Shown piece after piece: positions 3,698 through 61,213 of a DNA stretch of 64,000 nt. The translations under genes and the position numbers were made by a program. Location: the NCBI RefSeq assembly GCF_964213995.1, contig NC_135801.1:84568001-84632000 (forward strand), given 5' to 3'. Position 1 is the stretch's first letter; each line of letters opens with the position of its first letter. Origin of the DNA: Mustelus asterias. Lineage: Eukaryota. The notes below the pieces were generated by a model. The model was not told the DNA's origin, did no database searches, and saw only the letters and a program-made list of their open reading frames with translations.

Positions 3698-3982
3698 TCT
3701 TTTTGATCTACAAGGCAGTCAAAACTTAGCGGTGAAAGACTGCGAAGTAGAGTTGAGACCACAATCAGATCAACCATGATCTGACTGAATGGGGGAGCAG
3801 GCTCGAGGGGCTGAATGTTCTACTGCTCCTGTTTCTTATGTTCTTATCCCTAGTCTCTTCATCACAAAAGTAGATGATCTGGTCACTACCACATTTCTGC
3901 CTCTGGGAGCTTGCTGTGAATAAACTGGCTGCATGTTTACTACATTACACTTCAAAAGTAAAATACTGGTTATGATGTCTTC

Positions 3983-4329
3983 ATAGAAATCATAGAAACC
4001 CTACAGTACGGAAAGAGGCCATTCGGCCCATCGAGTCTGCACTGATCACAATCCCACCCAGGCCCTACCCCCATATCCCTACATATTTTACGCACTAATC
4101 CCTCTAATCTACACATCCCAGGACACTAAGGGGCAATTTTAGCATGGCCAATCAACCTAACCCGCACATCTTTGGACTGTGGGAGGAAACCGGAGCACCC
4201 GGAGGAAACCCACGCAGACACGAGGAGAATGTGCAAACTCCACACAGACAGTGACCCAAGCCGGGAATCGAACCCAGGTTCCTGGAGCTGTGAAGCAGCA
4301 GTGCTAACCACTGTGCTACCGTGCCACCC
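3983..4329 (-). mobile_element. HE1-type V-SINE, full length, young
   Basis: A and B boxes, V-domain and tail. TSD tgtcttc at 3976-3982 and 4330-4336. Confidence 0.93.
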
Positions 4330-12189: not shown

Positions 12190-15100
12190 GATCACAAGGG
12201 GGTGATATTACAGCCCTGGATGGTTAGATGTTGGGGAGACTATGGCCAATCCCAAGGGGGTGACATTACAGCCCGGGATGGTTAAATGTTGGGGAGACTC
12301 GGGTCACTCTGGGTGGTTAGATGTTGGGGAACTCTGGTCATTCTGTGGGATTAGTTGTTGGGGGGACTCTGGCCAGTCTGGGTGGTTAGATGTTGGGGGG
12401 ATTCTGGGTGGTTAGACATTGGGGAGACTCTGGGTGGTTAGATGTTGGGGAGACTCTGGGTGGTTAGGTGTTGGGGAGACTCTGGTCACTCTGGGTGGTT
12501 AGATATTGGGGAGACTCTGGGTGGTTAGATGTTGGGGAGACTCTGGGTGGTTAGATGTTGGGGAGACTCTGGGTGGTTAGATGTTGGGGAGACTCTGGGT
12601 GGTTAGATGTTGGGGAGACTCTGGGTGGTTAGATGTTGGGGAGACTCTGGGTGGTTAGATGTTGGCGGGATTTTGGGTGGTTGGATGTTGGGGAGACTCT
12701 GCATGGTTCGATGTTGGGGAAACTCTGGATGGTTAGATGTTGGGGAGACTCTAGTCACTCTGGGTGGTTAGATATTGAGGAGACTCTGGGTAGATGTTGA
12801 GGGGTCTCTGGGTGATCAGATGTTGGGGGACTCTGGGTGGTTAGATGTTGGGGGGACTCTGGGTGGTCAGATGTTGGGGTGACTCTGGTCACTCTTGTCG
12901 TTAGGTGTTGGGGGGACTCTGGTCATTCTATGTGGTTAGGTGTTGGGGGTCTCTGGTCACTCTGGGTGGTTAGGTGTTGGGGAGACTCTGGGTGGTTAGA
13001 TGTTGGGGGGACCCTGTGTAGTTAGATGTTGGGGGGACCACAGGGTGCTTAGATGTTGGGGGAACTCTGGGTGCTTAGATGTTGGGGGGACTCTGGGTGG
13101 TTAGATGTAGGGGAGACTCTCGCCACTCTGGATGGTTAGATGTTGGGGGGACTCTGGGTGGTTAGATGTTGGGAAGACTCTGGATGGTTAGATGTTGGGG
13201 AGACTCTGGGTGGTTAGATGTTGGGGAGTCTCTGGGTGGTTAGATGTTGGGGAGACTCTGGGTGGTTCGATGTTTGGCAGACTCTGGCTGGTTAGATTTC
13301 GGGAGCCTCTGGTCACTCTGGGTGGTTAGATGTTGGGCAAAGACTGGGTGGTTAGATGTTGGGGAGACTCTGGTCACTCTGGGTGGTTAGATGTTGGGGG
13401 GTCTCTGGTCACTCTAGCCGCTTAGATGTTGGGGGGGTCTCTGGTCACTCAGGGTAGTTAGATGTTGGTGGGTCTCTGGTCACTTTGGGCGGTCAGATGT
13501 TGGGGTTCTCTGGTCACTCAGGGTGGTTAGATGTTGGGGGCATCCCTGGTCACTCTGGGTGGTTAGATGTTGGGGGGTCTCTGGGAGGTTAGATGTTGGG
13601 GGGTCTCTGGTCACTCCGGGTGGTTAGATGTTGGGGGTCTCTGGTCACTCTGGGTGGGTAGATGTTGGGGGGGCCTCTGGTCACTCTAGGTGCTTAGATG
13701 TTGTGGGCTCTCTGGACACTCTGGGTGGTTAGATGTTGGGGAGTCTCTGGTCACTCTGGGTGGTTAGATGTTCGGGGCGTCCCTGGTCACTATGGATGGT
13801 TAGATGTTGTGGGCTCTCTGGTCACTCAGGGTGGTCAGATGTTGGGGTTCTCTGGTCACTCAGGGTGGTTAGATGTTGGGGGGACTCTGGGAGGTTAGAT
13901 GTTGGGGAGTCTCTGGTCACTCTGGGTGGTTAGATGTTCGGGAGCGTCCCTGGTCACTATGGATGGTTAGATGTTGTGGGCTCTCTGGTCACTCAGGGTG
14001 GTCAGATGTTGGGGTTCTCTGGTCACTCAGGGTGGTTAGATGTTGGGGGGACTCTGGGAGGTTAGATGTTGGGGGGTCTCTGGTCACTCCGGGTGGTTAG
14101 ATGTTGGGGGTCTCTGGTCACTCTGGGTGGTTAGGTGTTGGGGGTCTCTGGTTACTCTGAGTGGTTAGATGTTGGGGTCTCTGGTCACTCTGGGTGGTTA
14201 GATGTTGGGGGGTCTCTGGTCACTCTGGGTGGTTAGATGTTGGGGGGTCGATGGTCACTCAGGGTGGTTAGATGTTGGGGGGGTCTCTGGTCACTCTGGG
14301 TGGTTAGATGTTGGGGGGGGTCTCTGTCACTCTGGGTGGTTAGATGTTGGGGGGTCTCTGGTCACTCTGGGTGGTTAGGTGTTGGGGGGGTCGCTGGTCA
14401 CTCTGGGTAATTTGGTGTTGGGGGGTCTCTGGTCACTCTGGGTGGTTAGATGTTGGGGAGACTCTGGGTGGTTAGATGTTGGGGAGACTCTGGGTGGTTA
14501 GATGTTGGCGGGATTTTGGGTGGTTGGATGTTGGGGAGAATCTGCATGGTTCGATGTTGGGGAAACTCTGGATGGTTAGATGTTGGGGAGACTCTAGTCA
14601 CTCTGGGTGGTTAGATGTTGAGGAGACTCTGGGTGGTTAGATGTTGGGGGGATCCTGGGTAGATATTGAGGGGACTCTGGTGATCAGATGTTGGGGGGAC
14701 TCTGGATGGTTAGATTTTGGGGAGACTCTAGTCACTCTGGGTGGTTAGATGTTGGGGGGACTCTGGGTGGTTAGATGTTGTGGAGATTCTGGATGGTTAG
14801 ATGTTGTGGAGATTCTGGATGGTTAGATGTTGGGGAGACTCTGGGTGGTTAGATGTTGGCGGGATTTTGGGTGGTTGGAAGTTGGGGGGACTCTGCATGG
14901 TTCGATGTTGGGGAATCTCTGGATGGTTAGATGTTGGGGAGACTCTGGTCACTCTGGGTGGTTAGATGTTGGGCAAACTCTGGGTGGTTAGGTGTTGGGG
15001 AGACTCTAGTCACTCTGGGTGGTTAGATGTTGAGGAGACTCTGGGTGGTTAGATGTTGGGGGGATCCTGGGTAGATATTGAGGGGACTCTGGTGATCAGA

Positions 15101-17308
15101 TGTTCGGGGGCGTCCCTGGTCACTATGGATGGTTAGATGTTGTGGGCTCTCTGGTCACTCAGGGTGGTCAGATGTTGGGGTTCTCTGGTCACTCAGGGTG
15201 GTTAGATGTTGGGGGGACTCTGGGAGGTTAGATGTTGGGGAGTCTCTGGTCACTCTGGGTGGTTAGATGTTCGGGGGCGTCCCTGGTCACTATGGATGGT
15301 TAGATGTTGTGGGCTCTCTGGTCACTCAGGGTGGTCAGATGTTGGGGTTCTCTGGTCACTCAGGGTGGTTAGATGTTGGGGGGACTCTGGGAGGTTAGAT
15401 GTTGGGGGGTCTCTGGGTGGTTAGATGTTGTGGAGATTCTGGATGGTTAGATGTTGTGGAGATTCTGGATGGTTAGATGTTGGGGAGACTCTGGGTGGTT
15501 AGATGTTGGCGGGATTTTGGGTGGTTGGAAGTTGGGGGGACTCTGCATGGTTCGATGTTGGGGAATCTCTGGATGGTTAGATGTTGGGGAGACTCTGGTC
15601 ACTCTGGGTGGTTAGATGTTGGGCAAACTCTGAGTGGTTAGGTGTTGGGGAGACTCTGGTCACTCTGAGTGGTTAGATTTTGGGGAGACTCTGGGTGGTT
15701 AGATGTTGGGGGTCTCTGGTCACTATGGGTGGTTAGATGTTGGGGGGACTCTGGTCACTATGGGTGGTTACGTGTTGGGGGGACTCTGGGTGGTTAGATG
15801 TTGGGGGACTCTGATCACTCTCGTTGGTCACTCTGGGTGGTTAGGTGTTGGGGGTCTCTGGTCATTCTGGGTGGTTAGATGTTGGGGGTCTCTGGTCACT
15901 CTGGGTGGTTAGATGTTGGGGAGTCTTTGGTCACTCTGGGTGGTTAGATGTTGCGTGGTCTCTGGTCACTCTGGGTGGTTAGATGTTGGGGGTCTCTGGT
16001 CACTCTCGGTGCTTAGATGTTGGGGGGTCTCTGGACACTGTGGGTGGTTAGATGTTGGGGGGTCTCTGGTCACTCAGGGTGGTTAGATGTTGGGGAGACT
16101 CTGGTCATTCTGTGGGGTTAGTTGTTGGGGGGACTCTGGCCAGTCTGAGTGGTTAGATGTTGGGGGGATTCTGGGTGGCTAGATATTGGGGAGACTTTGG
16201 GTGGTTAATGTTGGGGAGACTCTGGGTGGTTAGATGTTGGGGAGACTCTGGGTGGTTAGATGTTGGGGAGACTCTGGGTGGTTAGATGTTGGGGAGACTC
16301 TGGGTGGTTAGATGTTTGGGAGCCTCTGGTCACTCTGAGTGGTTACATGTTGGGGAGACTCTGGGTGGTTAGATGTTGGGGGTCTCTGGTCACTCTGGGT
16401 GGTTAGATGTTGGGGGGTCTCTGGTCACTCTGGGTGGTTAGATGTTGAGGCGTCTCTGGTCACTCTGGGTGGCTAGATGTTGGGGGCGTCTCTGGTCACT
16501 CTGGGTGGTTAGATGTTGGGGGTCTCTGGTCACTCTGGGCGGTCAGATGTTGGGGCTCTCTGGTCACTCTGGGCGGGTAGATGTTGGGGGTCTCTGGTCA
16601 CTTTGGGTGGTTAGATGTTGCGGTGTCTCTGGTCACTCTGGGTGGTTAGGTGTTGGGGGGGTCTCTGGTCACTGTGGGTGGTTCGATGTTGGGGGTCTCT
16701 GGTCACTCTGGGTGGTTAGATGTTGGGGAGTCTCTGGTCACTCTGGGTGGTTAGATGTTGGGGGGTCTCTGGTCACTCTGGGTGTTTAGATGTTGGGGGT
16801 CTCTGGTCACTCTGGGTGGTTAGATGTTGGGGTTCTCTGGTCACTCTGGGAGGTTAGGTGTTGGAGGGTCTCTGGTCACTCTGGGTGGTTAGATGTTGGG
16901 GTTCTCTGGTCACTCTGGGTGGTTAGATGTTGGGGGGGTCTCTGGTCACTCTGGGTGGTTAGATGTTGGTGGGTCTCTGGTCACTCTGGGTGGTTAGATG
17001 TTGGGGGGGTCTCTGGTCACTCTGGGTGGTTAGATGTTGGGGGGGGTCTCTGGTCACTCTGGGTGGTTAGATGTTGGGGGGGTCTCTGGTCACTCTGGGT
17101 GGTTAGATGTTGGGGGGGTCTCTGGTCACTCTGGGTGGTTTGATGTTGGGGGGGTCTCTGGTCACTCTGGGTGGTTTGATGTTGGGGGGTCTCTGGTCAC
17201 TCTGGGTGGTTAGATGTTGGGGGGTCTCTGGTCACTCTGGGTGGTTAGATGTTGGGGGGTCTCTGGTCACTCTGGGTGGTTAGATGTTGGGGGGTCTCTG
17301 GTCACTCT
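12190..17308 (+). repeat. G-rich minisatellite array, about 5.1 kb, units of about 25 and 34-35 bp
   Basis: Tandem ctctgggtggttagatgttggggaga and ctctggtcactctgggtggttagatgttgggggt variants, with larger duplicated blocks (about 175-bp period near 13700-14050). Confidence 0.97.
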
Positions 17309-17309
17309 C

Positions 17310-18000
17310 ACCCCTCCCGTTGCGTTCCATCTGAGGAACGTTTCATTGTTTGGAACCTTGCCCCTGGTTCGGAGTCTGCGCACTGGCTGCTGATCCGCCC
17401 CATCCCCCGCCCTGAGTCCCGGAGAGAGTGAGTGACTGAGTGAGTGAGGCCGAGCCGGGCGGACTGAGCACTGGGCGCCCAGGACAACCACACAAAGAGT
17501 TGAGCCAGGCCCGGCGGCGCGGGCCCTCGTGCGATTGGGCGGCTCGCGGTCACGCGGCGGCCGGACTCCCCCCTCCCCCCCGTCCTGCGCCCACCGCCAT
17601 TTTGTAGCCAAGGAGGAGCAGCAGCCGCCGCGGTGCCAGCTTGGCCGGGTGGTTCCAGGCAGCAGCATCTTTCTAGGTCCGCGTGTCCCACCCGCCGCCC
17701 TTCCCCTCCCAACAGCCCGCCGGGGGAAGAGGAACCCGATGGACCCTCAGTACGGTTACAACCCGCCGTCCGCTGGTCTGATGGAGCAGAGCATGGCGGC
17801 GCCCGAGGAGTTCCCCGAAGGAGCCAAAATCAACGCCAGCAAAAACGAGGAGGACGAGGGGTGAGTGCGCAGGAGACGGTGCCAACTTCTCCTCACCGTG
17901 AAGACAAAGAGCGGTTAGCTCCCGGCCTGGAGGGAGGCTTTCCCCCCGGGGCGCGAGCTCCGGATACCGGACCCGGAGCGCGTGTGAGCGTCAAGCTCCG
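17310..18000 (+). promoter_or_regulatory. CpG island promoter, 5'UTR and exon 1 of HNRNPDL
   Basis: High GC and CpG. GC boxes (ccgccc near 17395 and 17406), reverse CCAAT (gattgg at 17533), YY1 motif ccgccattttg at 17594-17604. Confidence 0.85.
17739..17860 (+). CDS. HNRNPDL: hnRNP D-like, coding exon 1
   Basis: Translates MDPQYGYNPPSAGLMEQSMAAPEEFPEGAKINASKNEEDEG. Donor GG|GTGAGT. Lies in a CpG island. The start ATG could be one of the downstream in-frame Met codons. Confidence 0.9.
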
Positions 18001-18002
18001 CC

Positions 18003-19475
18003 CACTCCGGCTTACTGTGAACAGCACTGAGCCACTCTGGCATTGCCCAGTCTGGGTTACTGAGTGTGAACAGCACTGAGTCACCCTGGCATTGCCCAGT
18101 CTGGGTTACTGAGTGTGAACAGCACTGAGCCACCCTGGCATTGCCCAGTCTGGGTTACTGAGTGTGAACAGCACTGAGTCACCCTGGCATTGCCCAGTCT
18201 GGGTTACTGAGTGTGAACAGCACTGAGTCACCCTGGCATTGCCCAGTCTGGGTTACTGAGTGTGAACAGCACTGAGTCACCCTGGCATTGCCCAGTCTGG
18301 GTTACTGAGTGTGAACAGCACTGAGTCACCCTGGCATTGCCCAGTCCGCGTTACTGTGAATGCACTGAGCCACCCTGGCATTGCCCAGTCTGGCTTACTG
18401 AGTGTGAACAGCACTGAGTCACCCTGGCATTGCCCAGTCCGCGTTACTGTGAATGCACTGAGCCACCCTGGCATTGCCCAGTCTGGGTTACTGAGTGTGA
18501 ACAGCACTGAGTCACCCTGGCATTGCCCAGTCTGGGTTACTGAGTGTGAACAGCACTGAGTCACCCTGGCATTGCCCAGTCCGCGTTACTGTGAATGCAC
18601 TGAGCCACCCTGGCATTGCCCAGTCTGGCTTACTGAGTGTGAACAGCACTGAGTCACCCTGGCATTGCCCAGTCTGGGTTACTGAGTGTGAACAGCACTG
18701 AGTCACCCTGGCATTGCCCAGTCCGCGTTACTGTGAATGCACTGAGCCACCCTGGCATTGCCCAGTCTGGGTTACTGAGTGTGAACAGCACTGAGCCACC
18801 CTGGCATTGCCCAGTCTGGGTTACTGAGTGTGAACAGCACTGAGTCACCCTGGCGTTGCCCAGTCTGGGTTACTGTGAATGCACTGAGCCACCCTGGCAT
18901 TGCCCAGTCTGGCTTACTGAGTGTGAACAGCACTGAGTCACCCTGGCATTGCCCAGTCTGGGTTACTGAGTGTGAACAGCACTGAGTCACCCTGGCATTG
19001 CCCAGTCCGCGTTACTGTGAATGCACTGAGCCACCCTGGCATTGCCCAGTCTGGGTTACTGAGTGTGAACAGCACTGAGCCACCCTGGCATTGCCCAGTC
19101 TGGGTTACTGAGTGTGAACAGCACTGAGTCACCCTGGCGTTGCCCAGTCTGGGTTACTGTATGTGGACTGCACTGAGTCACCCTGGCGTTGCCCAGTCTG
19201 GGTTACTGTATGTGGACTGCACTGAGTCACCCTGGCGTTGCCCAGTCTGGGTTACTGTGTGTGGACTGCACTGAGCTCCCCTGGCATTGCCCAGTCTGGG
19301 TTACTGTGTGTGAACAGCGCTGAACCACCCTGGCATTGCCCACCTGGGTTACTGTGTGTGAACAGCACTGAACCACCCTAGCATTGCACATCCCAGTTTA
19401 TTCTCTGCTTTACTGTTTGTGTGTGTTCCCTGTTTTACTGTGTGTGTGAATAGCACTGAGCATTGCCCAACCACC
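18003..19475 (+). repeat. 49-bp/44-bp minisatellite with a 142-bp higher-order repeat in HNRNPDL intron 1
   Basis: Unit ccctggcattgcccagtctgggttactgagtgtgaacagcactgagtca (49 bp) plus a 44-bp variant. The 49+49+44 period shows up as ORF starts at 18564, 18706, 18848, 18990 and 19132. Confidence 0.97.
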
Positions 19476-23238: not shown

Positions 23239-23555
23239 GTACGTCTAGTAAAGTTGTCAATACAATTCAAGATTTAGCGCGTTTGGGGATAGAAGTTTTT
23301 TTTTCCAATTAATGTCCTGCATTTATAGAGAGCAATGGATTTTGAGACATGAGACAAAATGTTAGAAGAGTGCCCAAAAATTGGTCAGAGATTTATTTTA
23401 AGGAGGGTGTTGGGAAAGATAGGAAGATGAAAAGAAAAAGGGCTTTAGACAGGAAGTTGCAGAGGTTGTGGTGGCTAGATGCACAGCTGCCAATAGTAGA
23501 GTGAAGGGAACAGGATGTGCAACATAATCTAGAGTCAGGAACTGACCTCTTTATT

Positions 23556-23900
23556 TTTTCATGGGATGTGAGTGTCACTGACAAAGCCAGCATTTATTGC
23601 CCATCCCTAAATTGGCCTGGAATTGAGTAGCTTGCTAGACCATTGCAGAGGGTAGCTAAGAGTCAACCACATTGCTGTGGATCTGGAGTCATGTGTCGGT
23701 GAGACTGGGTAGGGATGGCAGATTTCCTTCCTTAAAAAACATTAGTGAACCAGGTAGCTTTTATGGCAGAAGTCATCACTACTGAGACGCATTAATTGAA
23801 TTTAAATTCCACAAATTGGTGAGGCGAATTTGAACTCATGTGCCCAGAACATTAATCTGGGCCTCTGGATTATTAGGATTTTATAACTTCACCACTATCT
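23556..23900 (-). mobile_element. tRNA-headed SINE with a Meta-domain-like core; relatives at 46852-47225 (+) and about 10530-10820 (-)
   Basis: Core ggaaggaaatctgcc.tcc.tacc..tgactccaga.ccacagcaatgtggttgactctta. The tail is shared with LINE family B. Confidence 0.65.
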
Positions 23901-25266
23901 CTGCTAAAGTTTGGGTGAACACTGGAGGAGGTTAGAAAAATGAGGATGGATGAGACAGTGGGAGGATTTAAATACAGGGTGATTATTTTAAGTAGTTAAA
24001 GGGGAAATGGAGTCTTTAGTGTAAATAAGACTCCTTTTGTTAGCTTTCTTACAAAATGGGTAAGCAAGAAGGAATCAATGCTGGATCTAATAATGGGAAA
24101 AGAACCATTGCAAATGAGGAAAATATCTAGACAATAACAATCACAACAAAACAAGGTTTAAGCTCAACATTGGGAAGGACATCAGATAAGATAAAGACCA
24201 AAGTAATAGATTGGAAAAAAGCCGATCTTAAAAGAATAAGAATGGCACTCGGGAAATAAACCGGAAAATAATATTGACAGAATAAAAAAGGCAAAAATAT
24301 GATCATTAAAGGATGAACACAGTAAACCCACACGTAATGGCAGCATAGTCTCCTGGTAAATAACTAGGCTAACAAATGACATTCAAGGAAATCCAAAAAA
24401 ACTATTTAAGATAGAACTAGGAAAGACCAAACCTATAAAAAAATAAAATCCTGGGTCTGAGTGAATTGTGTATATTAAAAGAAGCTAGGAAAGAGATGAC
24501 CGGGGCACTATTACACGTATTTCAAAAAATGATTAGGAAAAAGTGCCTGGAGGATAGATAGGTGAACACATGGTATTCATTATTTAAGACAGGCTATAGA
24601 ACAAGTCCAGGAACGTATAGATCAGTTAGCTTAACACTGATGGTATATAATTGGAAAACAACGAGAAATTGAAATTAAAGAATAGTCAGTACCTGAACAA
24701 AATGCTGTTCAAACAAAAATGTTGTGCTTGATCAACCTTACTGAATTCTTGAAGTAAAAGTGAGAGTAGATGGGATAAAACAGTAGATGATCTTCAAAAG
24801 GCCTTCAGTAGAGTACCTCATAGTGAGCCTATTGCTAAGAAGTGGGACAGGCAGCACAAAGGATGGCCAGTTGGCTTAAAACAGTGGAGGCTAGAGGTAG
24901 TTCCTCAGCCTGACAAAGGTAGAAAGTGGTGTTCTGTAGAGATCAGTGCTAAAACCAATTTCCGCTGTTGACAAAGAATTTGGACTTGGAAATCAGAAAT
25001 CAAATTTCAAAATTTGGAATAACATCAAATTAAGAGGTATAGTCAACACTGACAAATTACAAGATGATAAACTTGCAGAATGGGAGTGTAATTAACAAAT
25101 TAATGTCAATATAGATCAGTGTGAGGTCATTGAGGTGGTGCATTTTGCCAGCAGGAATGTGGAAGTCATCTTTTTAGAAAATAAGTATAAATTGGTTAGA
25201 GGAGCAAAGAGAGCTAGGGGATATACATATAAACATCAATTTTGTAAGGCCATATAAATTGTAAAC

Positions 25267-28200
25267 TGTCGGCAGTACCAGGGTGCAGGGTGCTGCAGCA
25301 ACGGAGAAATCAAAGAGAAATGTAGTAGTAATTGGGGATAGTGTAGTTAAGGGCATAGACACTGTTCTCTGTGACCAGGATAAGGAATACCGTAGGTTGT
25401 GTTGCCTGCCTGGTGCTCGGGTCCAGGATGTATCATCTGGGCTGCAGAGGAATTTGGAGTGGGAGGGTGAAAATCCAGTTGTCGTGGTCCATGTCGTGCC
25501 AATGACATGGACAAAACAGGAACTAAGGATCTGCAGAGGGAGTACGAAGAGCGAGGGAACAAATTGAAAAGCAGAACCAACAAGGTGGTAATCTCTGGAT
25601 TACTACCTGAGCCACGTGCGAATTGGCGCAGGGTTAATAGGATTAAGGAGACGAATGCGTGGCTCAAGGATTGGTGTGGGAGGAATGGGTTCGAATTCAT
25701 GGGGCATTGGCACCAGTATTTGGGCAGATGGGACCTGTATAGATGGGATGGTCTCCGTTTGAACCGTGCTGGGACCAGAGTCCTAGCGAATCGTATCACT
25801 AGGGCTGTAGATTGGGCTTTAAACTAATTTATGGGGGGGGGAGGGTGCAGAGGTAAGAGGAATTACGAAATCAATGGTAGAGGAGAGGGAGCGAGTGCAA
25901 GTGAATGAGGGCATTCAAGTAGTTAAAGGAGTAGAGGGCAAGGGAGAGGTTGATAGCGTTTCATCAAATCGGGTCCAGATAAAAGCTGGAATAAAGACAC
26001 TTTGCCTGAATGCACGAAGCATTCGGAACAAAGTTAAGGAGTTGATGGTGCAAATCAGCACAAATGGGTATGATCTAGTGGCCATTACAGAAACGTGGCT
26101 GCAGGGAGACCAGGACTGGGAGATGAATATCCAGGGGTATCAGGCATTTAGGAAGAATAGACAGGAAGGAAAAGGTGGTGGGGTAGCTCTGTTAATAAAA
26201 GATATCAGGGTAGTAGTGAGGGATGACATAGGCTCTAAGGAACAAAACGTGGAATCGTTATGGGTAGAGATAAGGAATAGTAAGGGGAGAAAGACACTAA
26301 TAGGTGTGGTCTATAGGCCCCCAAATAATAACTTTGAGGTGGGGAGGGCTATAAACAAGCAAATAATAGATGCGTGCAAAAACGGAACGGCAATAATCAT
26401 GGGAGACTTCAACCTGCATATTGATTGGCTGACTCAAGTTGGAAGGGGTGGGATGGAGGAAGAGTTCTTAGAATGCTGTTGGGATAGTTACCTTGAACAG
26501 TATGTTACAGAACCGACGAGGGAACGGGTTATCTTAGATCTGGTAATGTGTAACGAGGTAGGTAGAATTAAGGATGTTCTTGTGAAGGACCCTCTTGGGT
26601 CAAGTGATCACAATATGGTCGAATTTCTGATACAAATGGAAGAGGAGAAAGTAGGGTCCCATACCAGTGTCCTCTGTTTGAACAGAGGGAAGTATAATAG
26701 GATGAGGGCTGAATTGGCTAAGGTGGACTGGGAGAGCAGACTGGTAGGTAGGACAGCTGAGGAACAGTGGAGGATTTTTAAGGAGATCCTTTTCAGTACT
26801 CAGCAACAATATATTCCGGTGATAAAGAAGGACTGTAAGAAAAGGGATAACCAGCTGTGGATAACGAAGGAAATTAAGGAGAGTATTAAATTAAAGACCG
26901 ATGCGTACAGAGTGGCCAAAAATAGTGGAGAATCGGAAGATTGGGAAAACTTTAAGAAACAACAAAGAACGACTAAGAAAGCGATAAAGAAAGGAAAGAT
27001 AGGTTATGAAGCTAGGCTAGCTCAAAATATAAAAAATGATAGTAAGGAATAGAGTGGCAAGAGTGAATGTTGGACCCTTGGAGGACGAGAGGGGGGATTT
27101 AATAGTGGGAAATAAGGAAATGGCTGAAACTTTAAATAAGTTTTTTGTGTCGGTCTTCATGGTGGAAGACACAGTTTACCGAATATTAACGATAGAGGGT
27201 TGGTAGGAGGAGAGGTACTCAATACAATTAATGTTACCAAGGAGGCAGTGCTTGGTAGACTAACGGGACTGAAGGTGGACAAGTCCCCGGGCCCGGATGG
27301 AATGCATCCCAGGGTACTGAAAGAAATGTCAGAGGTAATAGCGGATGCGTTAGTGGTTATTTATCAAAATTCACTGGACTCTGGGGGTAGTGCCGGCGGT
27401 TTGGAAAACGGCTAATGTTACGCCACTGTTTAAAAAAAGAAATAGACACAAGGCGGGTAACTACAGGCCGGTTAGCTTAATGTCTGTAGTTGGGAAAATG
27501 CTGGAATCCATCATTAAAGAAGAAATAGCAGGCCATCTGGATAAGAATGGTTCGATTAAGCAGACGCAGCATGGATTCACGAGGGGAAAGTCATGCTTGA
27601 CGAACTTGTTGGATTTTTATGAAGATGTGACTAGTGCGGTTGATGGAGGGGAACCGGTGGATGCGGTGTTTTTGGATTTCCAAAAGGCGTTTGATAAGGT
27701 GCCTCACAAAAGGTTGCTGAAGAAGATTGGGTCACACGGAGTTGGGGGTAGGGTGTTAGCGTGGATTGAGGATTGGCTATCCGACAGGAAGCAGAGAGTC
27801 AGAATAAATGGGTGCTTTTCTGGTTGGCAGATGGTAACTAGTGGCGTGCCGCAGGGATCGGTACTGGGGCCTCAACTATTTACCATTTATATAGACGATC
27901 TGGAGGAGGGGACTGAGTGTAGGGTAACAAAGTTTGCAGACGACACAAAGATAAGTGGAAAAGTGAATTGTGTGGAGGGCATAGAAGGTCTGCAGAGAGA
28001 TTTGGACAGGCTGAGTGAGTGGGCGAGGATCTGGCAGATGGAGTATAACATTGACAAATGCGAGGTTATTCACTTTGGAGGAAATAATAGCAAATTGGAT
28101 TATTATCTAAATGGAAAACAATTACAACATGCTACTGTGCAAAGGGACCTGGGGGTCCTTGTGCATGAGATGCAAAAACCCAGTCTGCAGGTGCAACAGG

Positions 28201-29275
28201 TGATCAAGAAGGCAAATGGGATGTTGGCCTATATCGCAAGGGGGATAGAATATAAAAGCAGAGATGTCTTGCTGCATCTGTACAGGGCATTGGTGAGGCC
28301 GCAGCTGGAATACTGTGTGCAGTATTGGTCCCCTTATTTGCGGAAGGATATATTGGCCTTGGAGGGAGTGCAGAGAAGGTTCACCAGGTTGATACCAGAG
28401 ATGAGGGGTGTTGATTATGAGGAGAGACTGAGCAGATTGGGTTTGTACTCGTTGGAATTAGAAGGCTGAGGGGGGATCTTATAGAGACCTATAAGATAAT
28501 GAAGGGGCTGGATAGGGTAGAGATGGAGAGATTCTTTCCACTTAGAAAGGAAGCTAGAACTAGAGGGCACAGCCTCAAAATAAAGGGGGGTCAGTTTAAA
28601 TCATAGAAACCCTACAGTGCAGAAGGAGGCCATTCGGCCCATTTAGGACAGAGGCTCTGTTTAGGACAGAGTTGAGGAGGAACTTCTTCTCTGAGGGTGG
28701 TGAATCTCTGGAATTCTCTGCCCATTGAAATGGTGGAGGCTACCTCGTTGAATATGTTTAAATCACGGATAGATGGATTCCTGATCGGTAAGGGAACTAG
28801 GGGTTATAGGGATCAGGCAGGTAAGTGGAACTCATAGAAATCATAGAAATCCTACAGTACAGAAAGAGGCCATTCGGCCCATCGAGTCTGCACCGACCAC
28901 AATCCCACCCAGGGCCTACCCCCATATCCCTACATATTTTACCCGTTAATCCCTCTAATCTACGCATCCCAGGACACTAAGGGGCAATTTTAGCATGGCC
29001 AATCAACCTAACCCGCACATCTTTGGACTGTGAGAGGAAACCGGAGCACCCGGAGAAAACCCACGCAGACACAAGGAGAATGTGCAAACTCCACACAGAC
29101 AGTGACCCAAGCCGGGAATTGAACCCAGGTCCCTGGAGCTGTGAAGCAGCAGTGCTAACCACTGTGCTACCGTGCCGCCCCTGATCCACTTCAGATCATC
29201 CATGATCTTATTGAATGGCGGGGCAGGCTCGAAGGGCTAGATGGCCTACTCCTGCTCCTATTTCTTATGTTCCTA
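25267..29275 (+). mobile_element. Young CR1 LINE, near full length (ORF1 SGNH esterase; ORF2 APE endonuclease and RT), disabled
   Basis: ORF1 has VVVIGDS...DGLRLN. ORF2 has NARSIRNK, ITETWL, GDFN, SDH, QGSVLGP and FADDTK. Frameshifts and a deletion near 27045. (tatgtt)-type tail. TSD tgtaaac at 25260-25266 and 29276-29282. Confidence 0.95.
28832..29180 (-). mobile_element. HE1-type V-SINE, full length, inserted in the CR1 3' end
   Basis: gggcggcacggtagcacagtggttagc head, V-domain and tail. Confidence 0.93.
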
Positions 29276-29699
29276 TGTAAACAAAACACGGACTCTTTTC
29301 TACCGGGATAGAATCTTAAAAACTGAAGTTATGTCGGACCGTGGCGGACTGTACATAGATCTTGACTCTTGTTTAAAAAAGAACATGCAGGTGGTAAAGA
29401 GGGCAAATGGTATGTTGGCCTTCACGGTGAGAGGATTTGAGTACAGGAGCAGGATGTCTTGCTCCAATTATACATGGCCTAGGTGAGACCACACCTGGAA
29501 TATTGTGTGCAGTTTTGGTCACCTTATCTGAGGAAGGATGTTCTTGCTTTAGAGGGAGTGTAGCGAAGGTTTACCAGATAGATTCCTGGGATTGGGGGAC
29601 TGATGTACGAGGAGAGATTGAGTGGATTAAGATTATGTTTCATTGGAGTTCAGAGAAATGAACACTATAATGATTTCCTTGGGTATGTATGCTGATCCT

Positions 29700-31000
29700 T
29701 TGACTATAATAGTCCTGCATTTTATTTGTTGGTGCTGTTCTATAGTGGCTGGATAGATCATCATCTACATTTGCATCTGTTTTAACTTCATCTATAACTG
29801 TTGGCACCTCCAGCATTCAGTAACACCCTTATCATGTCTGTTAATGTTTCCTAACTTCTTTAGAGGTTTTGGGATAAACTCTAGCTTTCCTTGGTGGTTT
29901 GTACTGAGCTCACTGAGCATGTAAAAGCTTTCCATTTCATTAATTCTATTTGGATAATTTATATTTTGGCGAGTACGTTGCTTGCTATCTTGCTGTGAAT
30001 ACTTGAGTTAAATCATACTGTCTTATTAGCCATCTTCTGTTTGCAAACATTTATGATCCTTCCCATTTCTCAAGCTGCCCTTTTACAGAGAATTGAGAGA
30101 TTTATTTTCTGTGCTACAATGAGTTGTCAGGTTTCTGCTTCTCTAATCACCTGTTTAACTTGTGTCTGTGTATTCCTATACTTATCTCAGTTGACTCTAT
30201 CTCCTTTGCAAATGCAGGATTTCTGGAGTTTTTTTCCTGCTTCATTTGTCTTTAATTTCTAAATTAATTTAGGATCTCACCTGTTTAGTCCACACTTGCT
30301 GATTATAATTGTTTCTTATGCAAGCTCAGCATCTTGACTTTAGTGATGCTCAGATCATCATCTACTCCAGTGTTGGACAAAACCCTTAAATAATTTGCCT
30401 AAACAGTTCTTTCATTATACTGTAGCTGACTCCTGGTCCTTGCTGTTTTTGAATCCCATGAAATGTAAGACTTGATCCATTATGTTGGCACTGCGCCTGT
30501 GGCTTTTCCCATATGTTGTCTGGGTCACTGAACAGTAACCAAATCAAGATCTGCTCATGGCTTCCCTGACACTAAATCCGAAATGCAAACTATTTGGGTA
30601 TACCCAATTTATATTTGGTTGGTTAAAATTGTTCATCAAAATAACTTTCCTGTTACCATGTATCCTTCTAAATTTCAATCTCTAAATCTAGATCATAAAG
30701 CAAATAGTTATCATTTCTGGATCTGTGGTGTGAACTAAATGTTTTGTCTTTTTTGCATTAAACATACTTCTTAGTTAATTTTGTAATTCTTAACATCCCA
30801 CAGCATCCATCATCATTAATCTACTAGTTGTCTCTGCATAGATACACCATCTTCCTTCCTATTTTCTGATCCCACTATATAAATGTATGCTATGTTCATT
30901 GCCATCAGGCATGTTTCTGGCATTGCTGCTACATCATAGTTCCCCACAGTGCCCAATTTTAACATTTTATTCCTAATGCTTTGTGTTTCTGTGTATACAC
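29700..31000 (-). mobile_element. Ancient CR1-type endonuclease relic
   Basis: Minus ORF 30816-31097 contains YTETQSIRNK...YDVAAMPETCL, a decayed NARSIRNK/ITETWL. Bounds approximate. Confidence 0.5.
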
Positions 31001-31435
31001 CTGGTTCCAATGAGCCTCCCTGTTCTGCGTCTGGTTCCGGTATGCCTGAGTTAAAGACTAAAATTTCAGCAGCAGATTGCCAGCGAGTTATTTCCATCCT
31101 CAGTTTTCTTGGTGAACTCCCCTTCTTTCACAAACAAGTATATTAGAGAGTATCATTTTGCATCCATTATCTCTGAGGTAGTTCTTACATGTATGACTTC
31201 CAGGACTTCTATATTCTTTCCATGTTGTTTTATCCAATGGACTCCTAACACTGGGTCTTTGTATTCTCTTCTAACCTTTCATACATGCTACTCCAACTGC
31301 AGATAGGCAATGCTATTCTAAAGATATTATCAGTACAGTGCATTCCACTTTCCTGAAGAGCTCTGACTAATTTGCTTTTCGATCTGCAGATTTATACGAG
31401 GTATATTTTCTTTTTGCTACCTCCTAAAACTTTGG

Positions 31436-31825
31436 GGGCGATTCTCTGGCCCTGTGCATCCAGATGCAAATTGGGAGAGGGGCTATATTAAAATCTTAAT
31501 TTAGTTATGCAATTTCAGGTTTTAGCTGGCTCCCAGTATTCCCTGGTGCAACAAGAAGTTGGCAGAAATCACCACTGGTCTCCACAAGCAGACACCATGG
31601 GGTTTCGCACAATTTGGGAGGGGGTGAGTGGAACCTGTGGTGTTGTCCTTTAAACAAGGTGCTCCAATCTCTGAGGAGCTAGACTGTAGGTCCCACACAT
31701 CTCTTTGCCAGCGAGAGTCTCCTCAAGCTCAAAAGAAATGACTGAAGTGTATGGGTGGATTGTGATGTGTATCATACCATTCCTACCGGAGACAACATTA
31801 GAATTTTTTTGGGAGAATTGCGCCC
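31436..31825. mobile_element. MITE-like element with GGGC termini (PIF/Harbinger-like)
   Basis: Ends gggcgattctc and gagaattgcgccc form imperfect TIRs. A similar element lies at about 9390-9597 (gggccggcgttttccag / ctggaaaaacccaccc). Confidence 0.5.
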
Positions 31826-33450
31826 ATTTTTCCATTAGCATTTATGATGTTGCCTGGTATCTGTATTTGGAATCTGAATATCTTGACAGGTTTCCTTGCC
31901 TTTCCTGCTACTTATGACATTCAGCTGTCTAATATCCAATTTCCTACGTTTTCTTGTGATTTGTTTCTCTTTCTTGGCACCCTAGTTGTAGTGGTAGTCT
32001 TTGGTTCTGATTCCTGATGCCTTACTTCTGAGGTCAACTTCCAGCTCAGCCATTCCAGCTGTTGCCACGCTGATGATCAAAAAATTGGTTGTTTTAAGGA
32101 TCCAATCTGCTTACAGCTGTATATTCGGATAGCTTTGTGCAATTTTTGAGAGGTTTGCAGTGCTCTCTGTCCTGAGTTTTCATGAAATTTGTATCTGTCC
32201 TCTTGTCGTGATTTTCCTCCAGGAACTAGTCCTGCTATTTCATTCCTCTGCTATGTTGGCAGTGGAATTCTTGTGCAACTTTGCATTAAGCAAAAAGTCG
32301 TTTGGAGAAATGATATTAAAGTTCTTTTTCATTTTTTCTCTCCTCTTGAAGTAATTGACTGGGATCCAAATGATCAGTTTTCAAGCACAGTCTAGATTCT
32401 GTCTGTTGGCAAGCTTTTTGATTCTAGATGGCATCATGTATGAAACCAGTTCAGTTTTGAATTCTTGTCGAGATTTGTCTAGAGAACTGCAGCGAGAAAC
32501 TGCCACCTCAGCAGAGACTGCGAATTGATTTGGGACATCTGTATTCTGTAAATATGTTTGTCTCCATTTACAGTTGTGCTGCAGGTTGACAGTCCTGTAG
32601 ATCTTCTTCCAGCATTGTTGGAAGTGATGTTTTTCAGTAAGTTGTTGAACCTGTGGTCCGGTGCTGCATATAAGCTTTGACAACTTGGCCTAGAAACCCA
32701 AGACAGTCAGTCATTTTTGCATTTAGAATTCTTGTGTTGCCTTGCCTTGGGTTTATTTTCTGGACCTGGTGATTTGCCAGCAACTTGAGGTGCAAATGAC
32801 TGGCTTCTGAGACTGTAGAGTATTGATCCATATGTTTCTAAGCTTTTAAGAAAGTGAATATTTCTTGAAAATTATTAACCATCAGAGATCTTTTTATTAA
32901 TCTACTCGGGTGAGATTGGTGAGTAAGTATTGTCATAGGTCTATTGAGGGGTATTGTCATAGTGAGCCTGTTAATTCATCACAGCACTAACAAAGGCCCG
33001 AAATCAATGAGAAGCTATGATCCATCAGCAACAGCAGAGCTGCATCCCACCACAACCTGTAATGAGGTTTTAGTTCTCAGATGTCAGCCCTGACTGAGCA
33101 CTCATGCCACTTGAGTTAGGGAATTGACAGCTGAACACACAATCTAGACTGACACTGAGAGAGCACTGGTGTGTTGGAGTTGGTGTCTTTTGGGTGAGAA
33201 GCTAAACCAGAGCTTCCGCTGGCTCTGCAAGTTACTATCGCCATCCAAGCAGGAAGTGTCCTGGCCAAAGCCCATTGCCACCGATGTAATTTGGATATAT
33301 TGTCTTCATGAATAGCCTGACACAAATGCAAGTTTGTAATTTCCTACCTCCCGCTGACTCTTATTGATGTCTTCCTGGTTGTTTTCTCCAGTTAGAAAAC
33401 ACAGAAGATAATACCATCCTGGGTACTTTTATAGGCCAAGAAGTCATTGC

Positions 33451-33700
33451 CATTTACCTAGCAGAGTGAAACTATCATCACCTGACTGGGGTGCACTTCT
33501 CGGCCTTTTGGTTAAGCCAAGCGTCAGATCAAGCCCCAGATCAGGTGCAATGCCATTTCTTGTCAGCTTGGATCTTATATGTCTCTCTTGTGGAGACCAT
33601 GAATTGGATTCAATTTGAATTGGCTTTTGGAGCAAACAAGGCGATGAATTAAGGGCTCATCCAATCTGCTTTGCGCAGTGGTTTTGTAATAAGATTGGAG
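33451..33700 (+). pseudogene. U1 5'-fragment plus diverged U2 snRNA-derived sequence
   Basis: Exact 16-mer cttctcggccttttgg matches U2 nt 5-20. Colinear U2-like blocks follow (ttcttgtcagctt, gtctc/gagac stem, ttttggagca, tggttttgtaata). The upstream ttacctagcag...atcatcac resembles U1 nt 5-33. Confidence 0.7.
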
Positions 33701-34929
33701 TTTTTTTTTAAATTAAAAATCTATTGCTCAGGGGAGATGTCACAGATGAGCCTGAACATCACCCTGTTTCCTCACGTGCAATAACACCAAGGTTAATTGT
33801 GGTGGCTCTTTTGCTGGCCCAGTTTGTTTATTAGCTAACTCATTACAGATATAGTCTATTTGTTGTGGCTGCTCACTGATTAGGCAGCAAAATGGGTGAT
33901 TGGATGGATGTTGCAGTGAGTTAGATGCAGGAGTTTTCAGCACTGGGCCCTAGGTTGCAATCAAGTGTTCAGTTCTGTAGCTTCTTTATGTTTATGATGT
34001 ATATCAATCTCTATATAATCCTAGAGGGCATGTGGAAATTTGCAGGTGATACCAATATAAAATTGTGTACACGCACAATTTTGGGGAGGTTAATTCTTTA
34101 GGAGACCAAAGGAAATTGCAAAAGGATCTTGATACCTTGAAGAAAATGGATTTAAAAAGCGACAGAATTTAATACCGATGTGAGGGGATGCATTCAACAG
34201 TAATTGTATTCTGAATAGAAGTTGGTTTGGTGTTATGGAAAAACAGCAACTTGCAATACAAGTTCACAGAGCACTGAAAGAAAATTATCAATCCTAAAGT
34301 GTTGCCTTTAGAGCGTCAATAGAACATTTAAAACTTCAGTAAAGTCTTATTAAAACTTAGTATTGTGTGCGAATTCACCTGACAGGAAGGATATTGAAGT
34401 TTTTAGAGGGGTTATCGTACAGATTCACTAGGATGCTGCCTGGTATGAGGAAACAAATATTAAAAGCTTGAAAAATTGTGGGAGGGGGACGTCTTCTTTC
34501 AACTGATAACAGATTATGGGATTATTAGAAGTATTTCCAATTGTACAGGAATAGGACAGGTTAAATCGAAGCAGGGTGGGTAAATAAAAGCAGACTGTTT
34601 CCAGTAGTTGAAGGACTATAGATATAGGATTAAATACAATAGGGTTTAGAACAAAGTACAGTTGAGGCAATTTGAACTCTTTGTACTTGTGGCAAGTGCT
34701 GATGCAAACAGATTGGGTTGAAAAGTTGGTTTCAGTGAGTTTCTATGTAGTAACTGTCACCCAGTCTTAACTATATTTAGTAAATAGTAATTTTTGTTTT
34801 CGCTGTTATACGTAATAGGTAAACAATAAGAAGCACACCATTTTTGTATTCTTCTGCATTCAACTGAACTGTTTTAGGAACATCTGCTTTTCAGATTATT
34901 TTAACCAAATACTTCTGTACTTTTAACAG

Positions 34930-51669: not shown

Positions 51670-52009
51670 TCATAGAATCATAGAAACCCTACAGTGCAGA
51701 AGGAGGCCATTCGGCCCATCGAGTCTGCACCGACCATAATCCCACCCAGGCCCTACCCCCACATATTTACCCACTAATCCCTCTAACCTACGCATCCCAG
51801 GACTCTAAGGGGCAATTTTTAACCTGGCCAATCAACCTAACCCGCACATCTTTGGACTGTGGGAGGAAACCGGAGCACCCGGAGGAAACCCACGCAGACA
51901 CGAGGAGAATGTGCAAACTCCACACAGACAGTGACCCGAGCCGGGAATCGAACCCGGGACCCTGGAGCTGTGAAGCAGCAGTGCTAACCACTGTGCTACC
52001 GTGCCGCCC
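51670..52009 (-). mobile_element. HE1-type V-SINE, full length, nested in a Deu-type SINE
   Basis: Complete head, V-domain and tail. The host sequence cagatgagat|gttaaac is split by it. Confidence 0.93.
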
Positions 52010-59451: not shown

Positions 59452-61213
59452 CTAGCCAAGCCGTTCCAGTACAGCTACAACACTGGAATCTACCTGGCAA
59501 TGAGGAAAATTGTCCAGGTTTGTCCTTGCACAAGAAACGGGACAAATCTAACCCGGCCAATTATTGCCCCATCAGTCTACTCTTAATCATCAGTAAAGTG
59601 ATGGAAGGGGTCATCAACAGTGCTATCAAGCGGCACTTACTCAACAATAACCTGCTCACTGACACTCAGTTCAGGTTTCACCAGGATCACTCAGCTCCTG
59701 ACCTCATTACAAACATGGATAAATGAGCTGAGGTGAGAGTGACTGCCCTTGACATCAAGGCAGCACTTGACTGAGTATGGTATCAAGGAGCCCTAACAAA
59801 CTGGAGTCAATGGGAATCAAGGGAAAACCCACTGCTGGTTGGAGTCATGCCTAGCACAAAGGAACATGGTTTTGGTGGTTGGAGTTCAAGCATCTCAGTT
59901 CCAGTTAATCACTGCAGGCGTTTCTCAGGCTAGTGCCTTAAGCCCAACCATCTTCAGCTGCTTCATCAATGACCTTCTTTCCATCATGAGATCAGAGGTG
60001 GGGATGTTCGTTGATGACTGTATAATGTTTAACACCATTCACGACTCCTAAGATACTGATGCAGTCCAAGTCCAAATGCAACAAGACCTGGACAATATCC
60101 AGGCTTGGGCTGACAAGTGCCAAGCAAAATTTGCACCATGCAATGGCCAGGCATTGACCATCTCCAATGAGAGAATCTAACCACCACCCCATGACATTCA
60201 ATGGCATTATCATCACTGAATCCCCCACCAACAACATTCTGAAGGGGTTACCATTGACCAGCAACTGAACTGGACGAGCCACGTATATAGTTTGGCTACA
60301 AGAGCAGGTCAATGCCAGGAATCCTGCAGCAATAACTCGCCTCCTGACTCCCCAAAGCCTGTCCACCATTTACAAGGCATAAATCATGGAATACTCTCCC
60401 TTTGCCTGGATGAATGCAGTTCCAAAAACACTTGAGGCTGGACACATCCAGGACAAATCAGCCTTCTTGATTGGTACCCCTTCCACAAACATCCCCCACT
60501 GATGCAGAGTAGTAGCATTTTGTATCATCTACAATGTGCACTGCAGGAACTCACCAAGTCTCCTTAGGCAGCATCTTCCAAAACCATGACTGCTACCATC
60601 TAGAAGGACAAGGGCAGCAGATATACCTGGGAACACCACCATAGAAATCATAGAAACCCTACAGTGCAGAAGGAGGCCATTCGGCCCATCGAGTCTGCAC
60701 CGACCACAATCCCACCCAGGCCCTACCCCCACATATTTTACCCGCTAATCCCTCTAACCTACACATCCCAGGACTCTAAGGGGCAATTTTTAAACCTGGC
60801 CAATCAACCTAACCCGCACATCTTTGGACTGTGGGAGGAAACCGGAGCACCCGGAGGAAACCCACGCAGACACGAGGAGAATGTGCAAACTCCACACAGA
60901 CAGTGACCCGAGCCGGGAATCGAACCCAGGACCCTGGAGCTGTGAAGCAGCAGTGCTAACCACTGTGCTACCGTGCCACCTGGAGGTTCCCCTCCAAGTC
61001 ACTCACATCCTAACTTGGAAATATATCGCTGTTCCTTCACTGTCACTTGGTCAAAACCCTGGAACTCCTGCCTAACAGCATGGTGGGTGCACCTATAGCT
61101 CTGTGACTGCAGCTGTTCAAGGCAGCAGCTCACCATCACCTTCTCAAGGGCAATTAGGGGCAGGCAATAAATGTTGGCCTCGCCAACGATGCCTGCATCC
61201 TGCAGATGGATAA
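59452..61213 (+). mobile_element. CR1-group LINE family B (RT to 3' end)
   Basis: Translates DKSNPANYCPISLL, TAGVSQASALSPTIFSCFIND and MFVDDC. 3' end gggcaattaggg..caataaatgttggcc. Confidence 0.85.
60640..60979 (-). mobile_element. HE1-type V-SINE, full length, nested in a LINE
   Basis: Complete head, V-domain and tail. Confidence 0.93.

Follow-up and report, generated by a model that had tools for sequence, protein, structure and literature searches.

A short stretch in an intron of the HNRNPDL gene of Mustelus asterias begins like the U1 snRNA and continues like the U2 snRNA, which raises the question of whether it is an isolated relic or belongs to a family of snRNA-derived retroposons. 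We consider it likely that the stretch is an old and decayed copy of a high-copy family based on a nearly full-length, mutated U2, which would have spread as a retroposon of the SINEU type by means of a LINE reverse transcriptase. On the best reading, the family is real, abundant and SINEU-like, and the form that combines U1 with U2 is a minor subgroup of it. All coordinates refer to the window, by which we mean the whole 64-kb stretch of DNA that was analyzed, and the features of the locus are collected in Table 1.

The window contains HNRNPDL, with coding exons near positions 17740, 20805, 22300, 23107, 34930, 36210 and 37280. The exons give RRM matches, and the best PDB match for two of them is the hnRNP D-like structure 7zir. 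This match and the exon and intron layout bear out the placement of the element in intron 4 in the preliminary description, a number that holds if the coding exon near 17740-17860 is counted as the first. The element is in sense orientation to the gene, about 1.2 kb ahead of the 3' splice site, and occupies approximately 270 bp between flanks that are single-copy at 80% identity. No second copy was found in the window by blastn or nhmmer, and ARAGORN found no tRNA genes there. The same intron also contains broken frames at 25265-28469 that we take, by eye, to be the endonuclease and reverse transcriptase of a CR1-like LINE, and the segment at 33060-33300 resembles what we presume to be a decayed Deu-domain SINE, of which the part at 33200-33300 is single-copy at 80% in the contig alignment.

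Table 1. Features of the U2-derived element and its host intron (window coordinates).
Feature	Position	Strand	Basis
Host intron of HNRNPDL	23239-34929	+	Separates the fourth from the fifth of the coding exons identified
Candidate degenerate TSD, 5' copy (weak)	33438-33452	+	Score reached by 375 of 4979 random flank pairs
Putative U1-like head, decayed, about U1 nt 3-46 (5' splice-site-pairing end and stem-loop I region)	33452-33496	+	U1 alignment, shuffles
U2 5' unit, nt 5 to about 36, with 16 nt identical to U2	33496-33526	+	Alignment; consensus of the loose ends ahead of 33518 and 33527
Short internal repeat of U2 nt 25-31, middle unit of a triplication, common to other copies	33527-33537	+	Contigs align across it without gaps
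Diverged U2 core, nt 23-86, with altered branch-recognition region and equivalents of stems IIa and IIb; peak of family depth	33538-33602	+	
Sm-site region, 11 extra nt compared with U2	33603-33632	+	Alignment to U2
Remnant of the U2 3' domain (about nt 113-170), decayed and without the final 20 nt	33633-33691	+	Alignment and profile
Non-U2 3' end, T9 run followed by a short A-rich tail	33692-33719	+	Depth at 33705 just 1.4-4 times the flank
Candidate degenerate TSD, 3' copy (weak)	33715-33730	+	Score reached by 375 of 4979 random flank pairs

The relationship of the body to U2 is clear. The U1 and U2 genes used for comparison were taken from public contigs, four of these loci were verified with Rfam, and all are from organisms other than sharks. 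The identity of 33496-33511 to U2 nt 5-20, which had been noticed by eye, was confirmed against the verified U2 genes, and the sequence at 33496-33691 is colinear with U2 nt 5-170 (reference L039), with the match resuming after 23 extra nucleotides. Thus, the colinearity previously reported past the triplication extends to nt 170. A U2 profile built from 36 of 40 fetched U2-motif sequences (four were dropped as non-U2 or truncated) produced a sole nhmmer match in the 64 kb, at 33496-33657 with an E-value of 2.2e-5. Its score was reached by none of 1000 shuffles, with or without the identical 16-mer, and the score of the U2 3' domain alone by 1 and 8 of 1000.

Nevertheless, the element is not a working U2, as the preliminary description had also maintained. 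It obtains 18.9 bits with the Rfam U2 model RF00004, against a gathering score of 46 (E 0.57), the branch-recognition motif GUAGUA is absent, and no PSE-like site was found upstream, where scores of -0.7 and 1.2 compare with a background mean of 0.8 for a rough matrix made from 18 non-shark U1 and U2 upstream sites. The Sm site at the U2 position is degenerate in this copy. The Rfam search of the window yielded zero matches at gathering level, and the U1 model gave no match at E≤10. In folding tests, the element as a whole (z -1.42) and three of four sub-regions fold no better than shuffles, and an 8-bp inverted repeat ahead of the T run (33660-33667/33692-33699) is not significant (z 0.34). 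The stem IIb equivalent does fold, with one double change relative to fish-type U2, but 18 of 200 shuffles fold equally well; the suggestion that its preservation points to evolution as a transcribed RNA is thus not upheld.

Words of the segment 32600-34600 are contained in 20 runs from nine studies; no RNA data set was among those listed, which is uninformative as to expression. Four of 21 listed runs were analyzed: X1 from the species itself (species A), X4 from species B, X10 from species D and X20 from species H. Contigs were aligned to 33200-34000 at a minimum of 80% identity, giving 4,960 (X1), 4,195 (X4), 3,467 (X10) and 3,778 (X20) aligned contigs, numbers that exclude a single-copy pseudogene. 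The depth is flat over the flanks, at 23.8 in X1, 6.5-7.0 in X4, 10.4-11.4 in X10 and 9.7 in X20 (3' side only). Over 33551-33604 it climbs to peaks of 300,191, 95,976, 36,031 and 64,828, respectively, which corresponds to peak-to-flank ratios of 12,587, 14,156, 3,306 and 6,683. Depth is not copy number, since short overlapping contigs inflate it, and we read these values as thousands of family copies. Canonical U2 arrays are excluded as the cause of the peak: over 33538-33602 the 40 U2-motif sequences are at most 72% alike to the element, below the 80% threshold, with 77% in the best 31-nt window and a longest exact run to the core of 9 among the eight best of them.

The copies share a consensus, as indicated by a change at 33555 that is found in 122,290 of 125,966 depth units in X1. 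The listed loose ends of the contigs agree only to about 0.5 and reach lengths up to the 255-letter ceiling, which fits the expectation for dispersed copies with differing flanks; a few single contigs show local back-jumps. With thousands of contigs in four species sharing U2-derived changes next to differing flanks, the element belongs to a family of abundant repeats built on a mutated U2, as had been proposed, and the alternative of a single copy is contradicted by the thousands of aligned contigs in all four runs. The four related species that carry the family are probably sharks, a reading that draws on the label of shark metagenome carried by one of the 20 runs.

The typical layout of a family member can be read from the positions where the alignments break. 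At 33518, where 93-102 contigs per run break off, the preceding consensus is U2's own 5' end after mixed A/T-rich letters, and the consensus ahead of this commonest 5' break is not the head of our copy. At 33527 (64 contigs in X1) the preceding consensus is U2 to about nt 36, which makes the triplication a family trait. Family members thus consist of a U2 body that has diverged, preceded by a 5' piece of U2 that is nearly intact. Behind 33615-33628 the consensus runs into the Sm region and the U2 3' domain, mixed with A-rich letters, and beyond 33659 the depth is just 1.4-4 times that of the flank, so that a common 3' tail is barely visible. This drop is explained either by indels of our copy that break the alignment or by variable 3' ends.

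Such a layout could also be produced if the snRNA-like stretch were the 5' head of a longer Tx1/Keno-type LINE or another larger repeat, of which the locus would then be a fragment. Crocodilian Tx1 families carry U1 or U2 heads (Kojima, 2015; PMC4494074), the cleavage site of Keno and Utopia in U2 falls between nt 38 and 39 (PMC4640811), near the nt-36 break seen here, and the loose ends after 33628 are long. However, past 33621-33628 the consensus reads as U2 3' domain or is rich in A, with an agreement of about 0.5 and no single shared body, and our copy closes with a T/A run, after which single-copy flank begins. We therefore find this explanation improbable.

A second possibility is that the copies are processed pseudogenes, produced in mass from one or a few divergent U2 variant genes with an external snRNA promoter, each copy being dead on arrival, in which case they would not form a SINE family in the strict sense. 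This would be consistent with a body that is colinear with almost all of U2 and has no foreign tail, with most copies starting at U2 nt 1, with 3' ends that look mixed and with the lack of an internal promoter, and the same bar was set for 7SL retrocopies by Kojima (2020; PMC7245038). Among the fragments of copies we observed structural variants, however: the triplication, alternative core letters and a headed subgroup, which point to several sources. Moreover, the headed form occurs in at least nine contigs from four species, which indicates that the chimera was itself copied. For these reasons we regard mass processing of variant U2 genes as unlikely and favor a SINEU-type family.

We turn now to the head that precedes the U2 body. 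The preliminary count of about 22 matches in 29 positions between 33454-33481 and U1 nt 5-33 could be reproduced exactly with one gap (reference L027); furthermore, the alignment to U1 continues to nt 46 at 33496, and the head joins the U2 start over a 3-nt overlap (33494-33496). In comparisons with three U1 genes the score of 33452-33496 was reached by 0, 1 and 2 of 3000 shuffles, and 40 of 51 U1 heads give P≤0.01 on this region, with a local P of about 0.001-0.014. Across the window, the likeness is not significant: with a broad U1-head profile the head is the best match, at an E-value of 0.8 in 64 kb, and with a vertebrate-only U1 profile it is not among the five matches. A covariance model of stem-loop I, built from 26 of the fetched U1 heads, assigns it 6 bits, which is the ninth of 14 matches in the window (E 0.014 within 121 nt). 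The folding of the head reaches z -2.42, although its register is not that of U1.

It is therefore appropriate to ask whether the head might instead be flanking DNA that was carried along from one source copy as a 5' extension and resembles U1 by chance. The part that is common to other copies, 33466-33496, reaches its score in 25-211 of 3000 shuffles when taken alone (the 5' half in 11-14), and the low score with the stem-loop I model points in the same direction. In addition, 33488-33495 resembles a motif within the family core, as seen in the loose ends, and SINEU-2 carries non-U1 5' extensions (PMC4494074). On the other hand, the two halves match U1 in order, starting from the U1 5' end and abutting the U2 5' end, and it is their combined score that so few shuffles attain. 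The orthologs in species B and D, moreover, read G at 33465, which is the U1 base, where our copy has A. The letters inserted in species D just before 33455 suggest that the head start is less U1-like in that species. Taken together, we hold a chance resemblance to be doubtful, noting that it concerns the head alone, leaves the family real and overlaps with our preferred explanation; from the alignments, an origin of the head from U1 seems quite probable.

How widespread is the head? The depth above flank at 33472 is 246, 60, 9 and 0 in X1, X4, X10 and X20, or 0.08, 0.06, 0.03 and 0% of the peak, and the X1 value amounts to roughly an eighth of the depth found at 33516 in that run. Among the 32 pieces listed, seven are orthologous, and nine of the 25 non-orthologous ones begin no later than 33479 and extend across the junction between head and U2, with 0-3 gap letters and 81-85% identity, in all four runs. 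The listing favors long pieces, and identities close to the 80% floor imply that headed copies are undercounted. In six of the nine, the alignment stops at 33466/33467 while the contig goes on, at a site where our copy has a private base (A instead of the G of species B and D) and a 1-nt gap relative to U1; the aligner could have been halted by these differences, or the shared part could truly end there. Among the listed non-orthologous pieces one contig reaches about 33460 and none reaches 33454, so that the best U1-like part (33454-33465) is seen in other copies in no more than one listed contig. The head is thus common to a small subgroup from 33466 onward, and in these other copies it presumably also includes the U1 5' end. 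The notion of a family of U1+U2 fusions would consequently hold for the subgroup that shares the junction but not for the majority of copies, which start at the U2 5' end and lack the U1 segment.

The insertion at this locus predates the split of species A, B, D and H. Orthologous junction contigs were recovered on both sides in B and D and on the 3' side only in H, and they differ from our copy at 38 of 724 letters (5.2%), 61 of 735 (8.3%) and 33 of 367 (9.0%), respectively. In the four runs the element is not covered from end to end by any single contig, and an empty site was not encountered. Two stretches present in species D are missing from species A, one of about 15 nt immediately ahead of the head (33440-33454) and one of 13 nt at 33285; the contig from B shows the same total of 28 gap letters. 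Among the positions listed for D, about 26 of 221 on the element differ, against about 35 of 514 on the flank, and thus no constraint is visible; two of the changes in D are 1-nt deletions in the head.

These comparisons also bear on whether the locus could be a functional variant snRNA or a regulatory RNA of HNRNPDL. The placement in sense within an intron of a gene for a splicing regulator and the presence in four species would agree with such a role. Given that the differences in D spare neither the element nor its head, and given the missing PSE-like site, the folding score and the low Rfam score reported above, we regard this role as extremely unlikely. The single intronic copy is itself probably inert.

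We also looked at the ends of the copy and at its promoter features. The weak candidate copies of a target site duplication sit at the expected ends of the element. The tail has short A runs after T9, and the loose ends of other copies are A-rich but noisy. With consensus motifs we found neither an octamer nor an A box, and one B-box-like 9-mer at 33527. There are four internal runs of at least four T. This combination of T runs with no internal Pol III promoter is as reported for SINEU (PMC4494074).

Our preferred hypothesis for the origin of the family is that a U2-derived source locus escaped its splicing function and lost the branch-recognition sequence, but would have remained transcribed, driven by an external Pol II promoter or owing to read-through. 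A Tx1-type LINE enzyme may then have reverse-transcribed this RNA and pasted the products at dispersed sites. At times the enzyme would have jumped to another snRNA and thereby added a new 5' piece of U2 reaching about nt 36, a step partly visible in the contigs, as is the next, in which a jump would have added a U1 5' piece over the 3-nt overlap in a small subgroup, with the headed copy then being copied in turn. The copy in HNRNPDL was inserted before the split of the four species and decayed thereafter. The RNA intermediate, the Tx1 partner, the template switching and the activity of copies as sources are what we infer. There is a precedent in the crocodilian SINEU for the U1+U2 structure, for repeated 5' additions and for mobilization by Tx1, and a template switch from a mobilized U2 to U1 was proposed as the origin of SINEU-2 (Kojima, 2015; PMC4494074). 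Tx1 repeats are also present in the whale shark, in which no full L1 was reported in the available text (PMC8455134). A different master for the family would be an expressed, divergent U2-type or U1-U2 fusion RNA gene of sharks, in which the branch-recognition region is rewired while stems and Sm binding are retained, and whose RNA would act on its own account in the spliceosome or alongside it; we judge this to be very improbable.

Among known systems, SINEU-2 of the crocodile and the gharial is the most similar in that a 5' U1 piece of about 50 nt is placed on a U2-derived body, the length is below 500 bp, no promoter is recognizable, and there is internal oligo-T and repeated 5' additions (PMC4494074). 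Unlike the repeats described here, SINEU-2 is young, with 137-1,058 copies, is headed by U1 throughout, has a poly(A) tail and is weakly targeted to Mariner-N4 (PMC4494074), whereas the present family is older than the four species, apparently larger, mostly U2-headed and heavily altered in the U2 core. The head reaches less than 0.1% of peak depth here, and the majority of copies have a U2 start. With single-copy flanks at 80%, no repeat target like Mariner-N4 was found at this locus. The shark family is probably independent of, or convergent with, the crocodilian SINEU-2, as far as a comparison by description rather than by sequence can tell.

The other crocodilian families share single traits with the present one. 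SINEU-3 contains U2 as its only snRNA, the 5' 32 nt of which form its start, but has an internal 50-bp deletion and a unique end of 40 nt, whereas the middle of U2 is kept and partly duplicated here; SINEU-1 has stacked U1/U2 heads and partial head duplications, but a long non-snRNA 3' half of a kind not seen here (PMC4494074). Processed or tailless U2 retropseudogenes are similarly promoterless snRNA copies inserted by a LINE enzyme (PMC5322556), yet they are independent copies of canonical U2, while thousands of contigs here share non-U2 changes. Keno (Tx1) and Utopia break U2 near nt 38 and are a candidate source of U2 5' fragments, but these are autonomous, kilobase-long elements that insert into U2 (PMC4640811), and no such body adjoins our copy. 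The traits shared with the SINEU class are a U2-derived 5' region, many copies of one derived structure, a non-coding length below 500 bp (at this locus), internal oligo-T and no internal Pol III promoter.

The accessible accounts of SINEU place it in crocodilians only (PMC5381603), with none found elsewhere (Kojima, 2015; PMC4494074), and the chondrichthyan SINEs described are of the tRNA-headed CORE and Deu types (PMC5499810). The available text of two genome papers lists 1,221 and 870 predicted snRNAs without comment (10.1101/2025.02.19.638963; PMC12946260). Our survey of the accessible literature, which had Repbase, Dfam and most subscription papers outside its scope, found no report of an snRNA-derived SINE in sharks (including PMC4758252, PMC5786205 and PMC7245038), and an uncurated entry for the family in Repbase or Dfam is quite possible. 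A second vertebrate family with a U1 addition onto U2, older and apparently larger than the first, would establish that new retroposons can arise repeatedly in this way. How promoterless, snRNA-headed SINEs are transcribed was left open by Kojima (2015; PMC4494074), and thousands of copies would allow tests of the transcription source and the partner LINE. The insertions also supply presence/absence markers for shark phylogeny, and some caution is called for because U2-like matches in shark genomes are mostly copies of this family.

Some further observations were made in the window and in the searches of other sequence collections. Four near-full copies of a young repeat of about 345 bp, 92-98% alike and probably a SINE, are located at 3981-4329, 28832-29180, 51670-52009 and 60640-60980, accompanied by older partial copies, and the first HNRNPDL coding exon lies between two long tandem arrays (12216-17308 and 18000-19390). 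The exact pattern of U1, gap and U2 had no matches in metagenome contigs, a result that is uninformative as to sharks. Scans of viral contigs gave 3, 2 and 2 short matches, with L174 and L175 being chance 18-mers. One IMG/VR contig of 1,767 bp that is filed as viral contains U2 nt 1-42 followed by unrelated DNA (L173, positions 577-620), which may be eukaryotic contamination or a truncated U2 retrocopy. The 87 exact U2-motif stretches in prokaryote bins (L085-L171), many of them in tandem arrays of about 1.4 kb, are eukaryotic host DNA inside GTDB bins. Finally, U1 and U2 genes are at most 1.5 kb apart in four contigs (L004, L027, L039 and L050), together with U5 and U6 in L027 and with U5 in L039.
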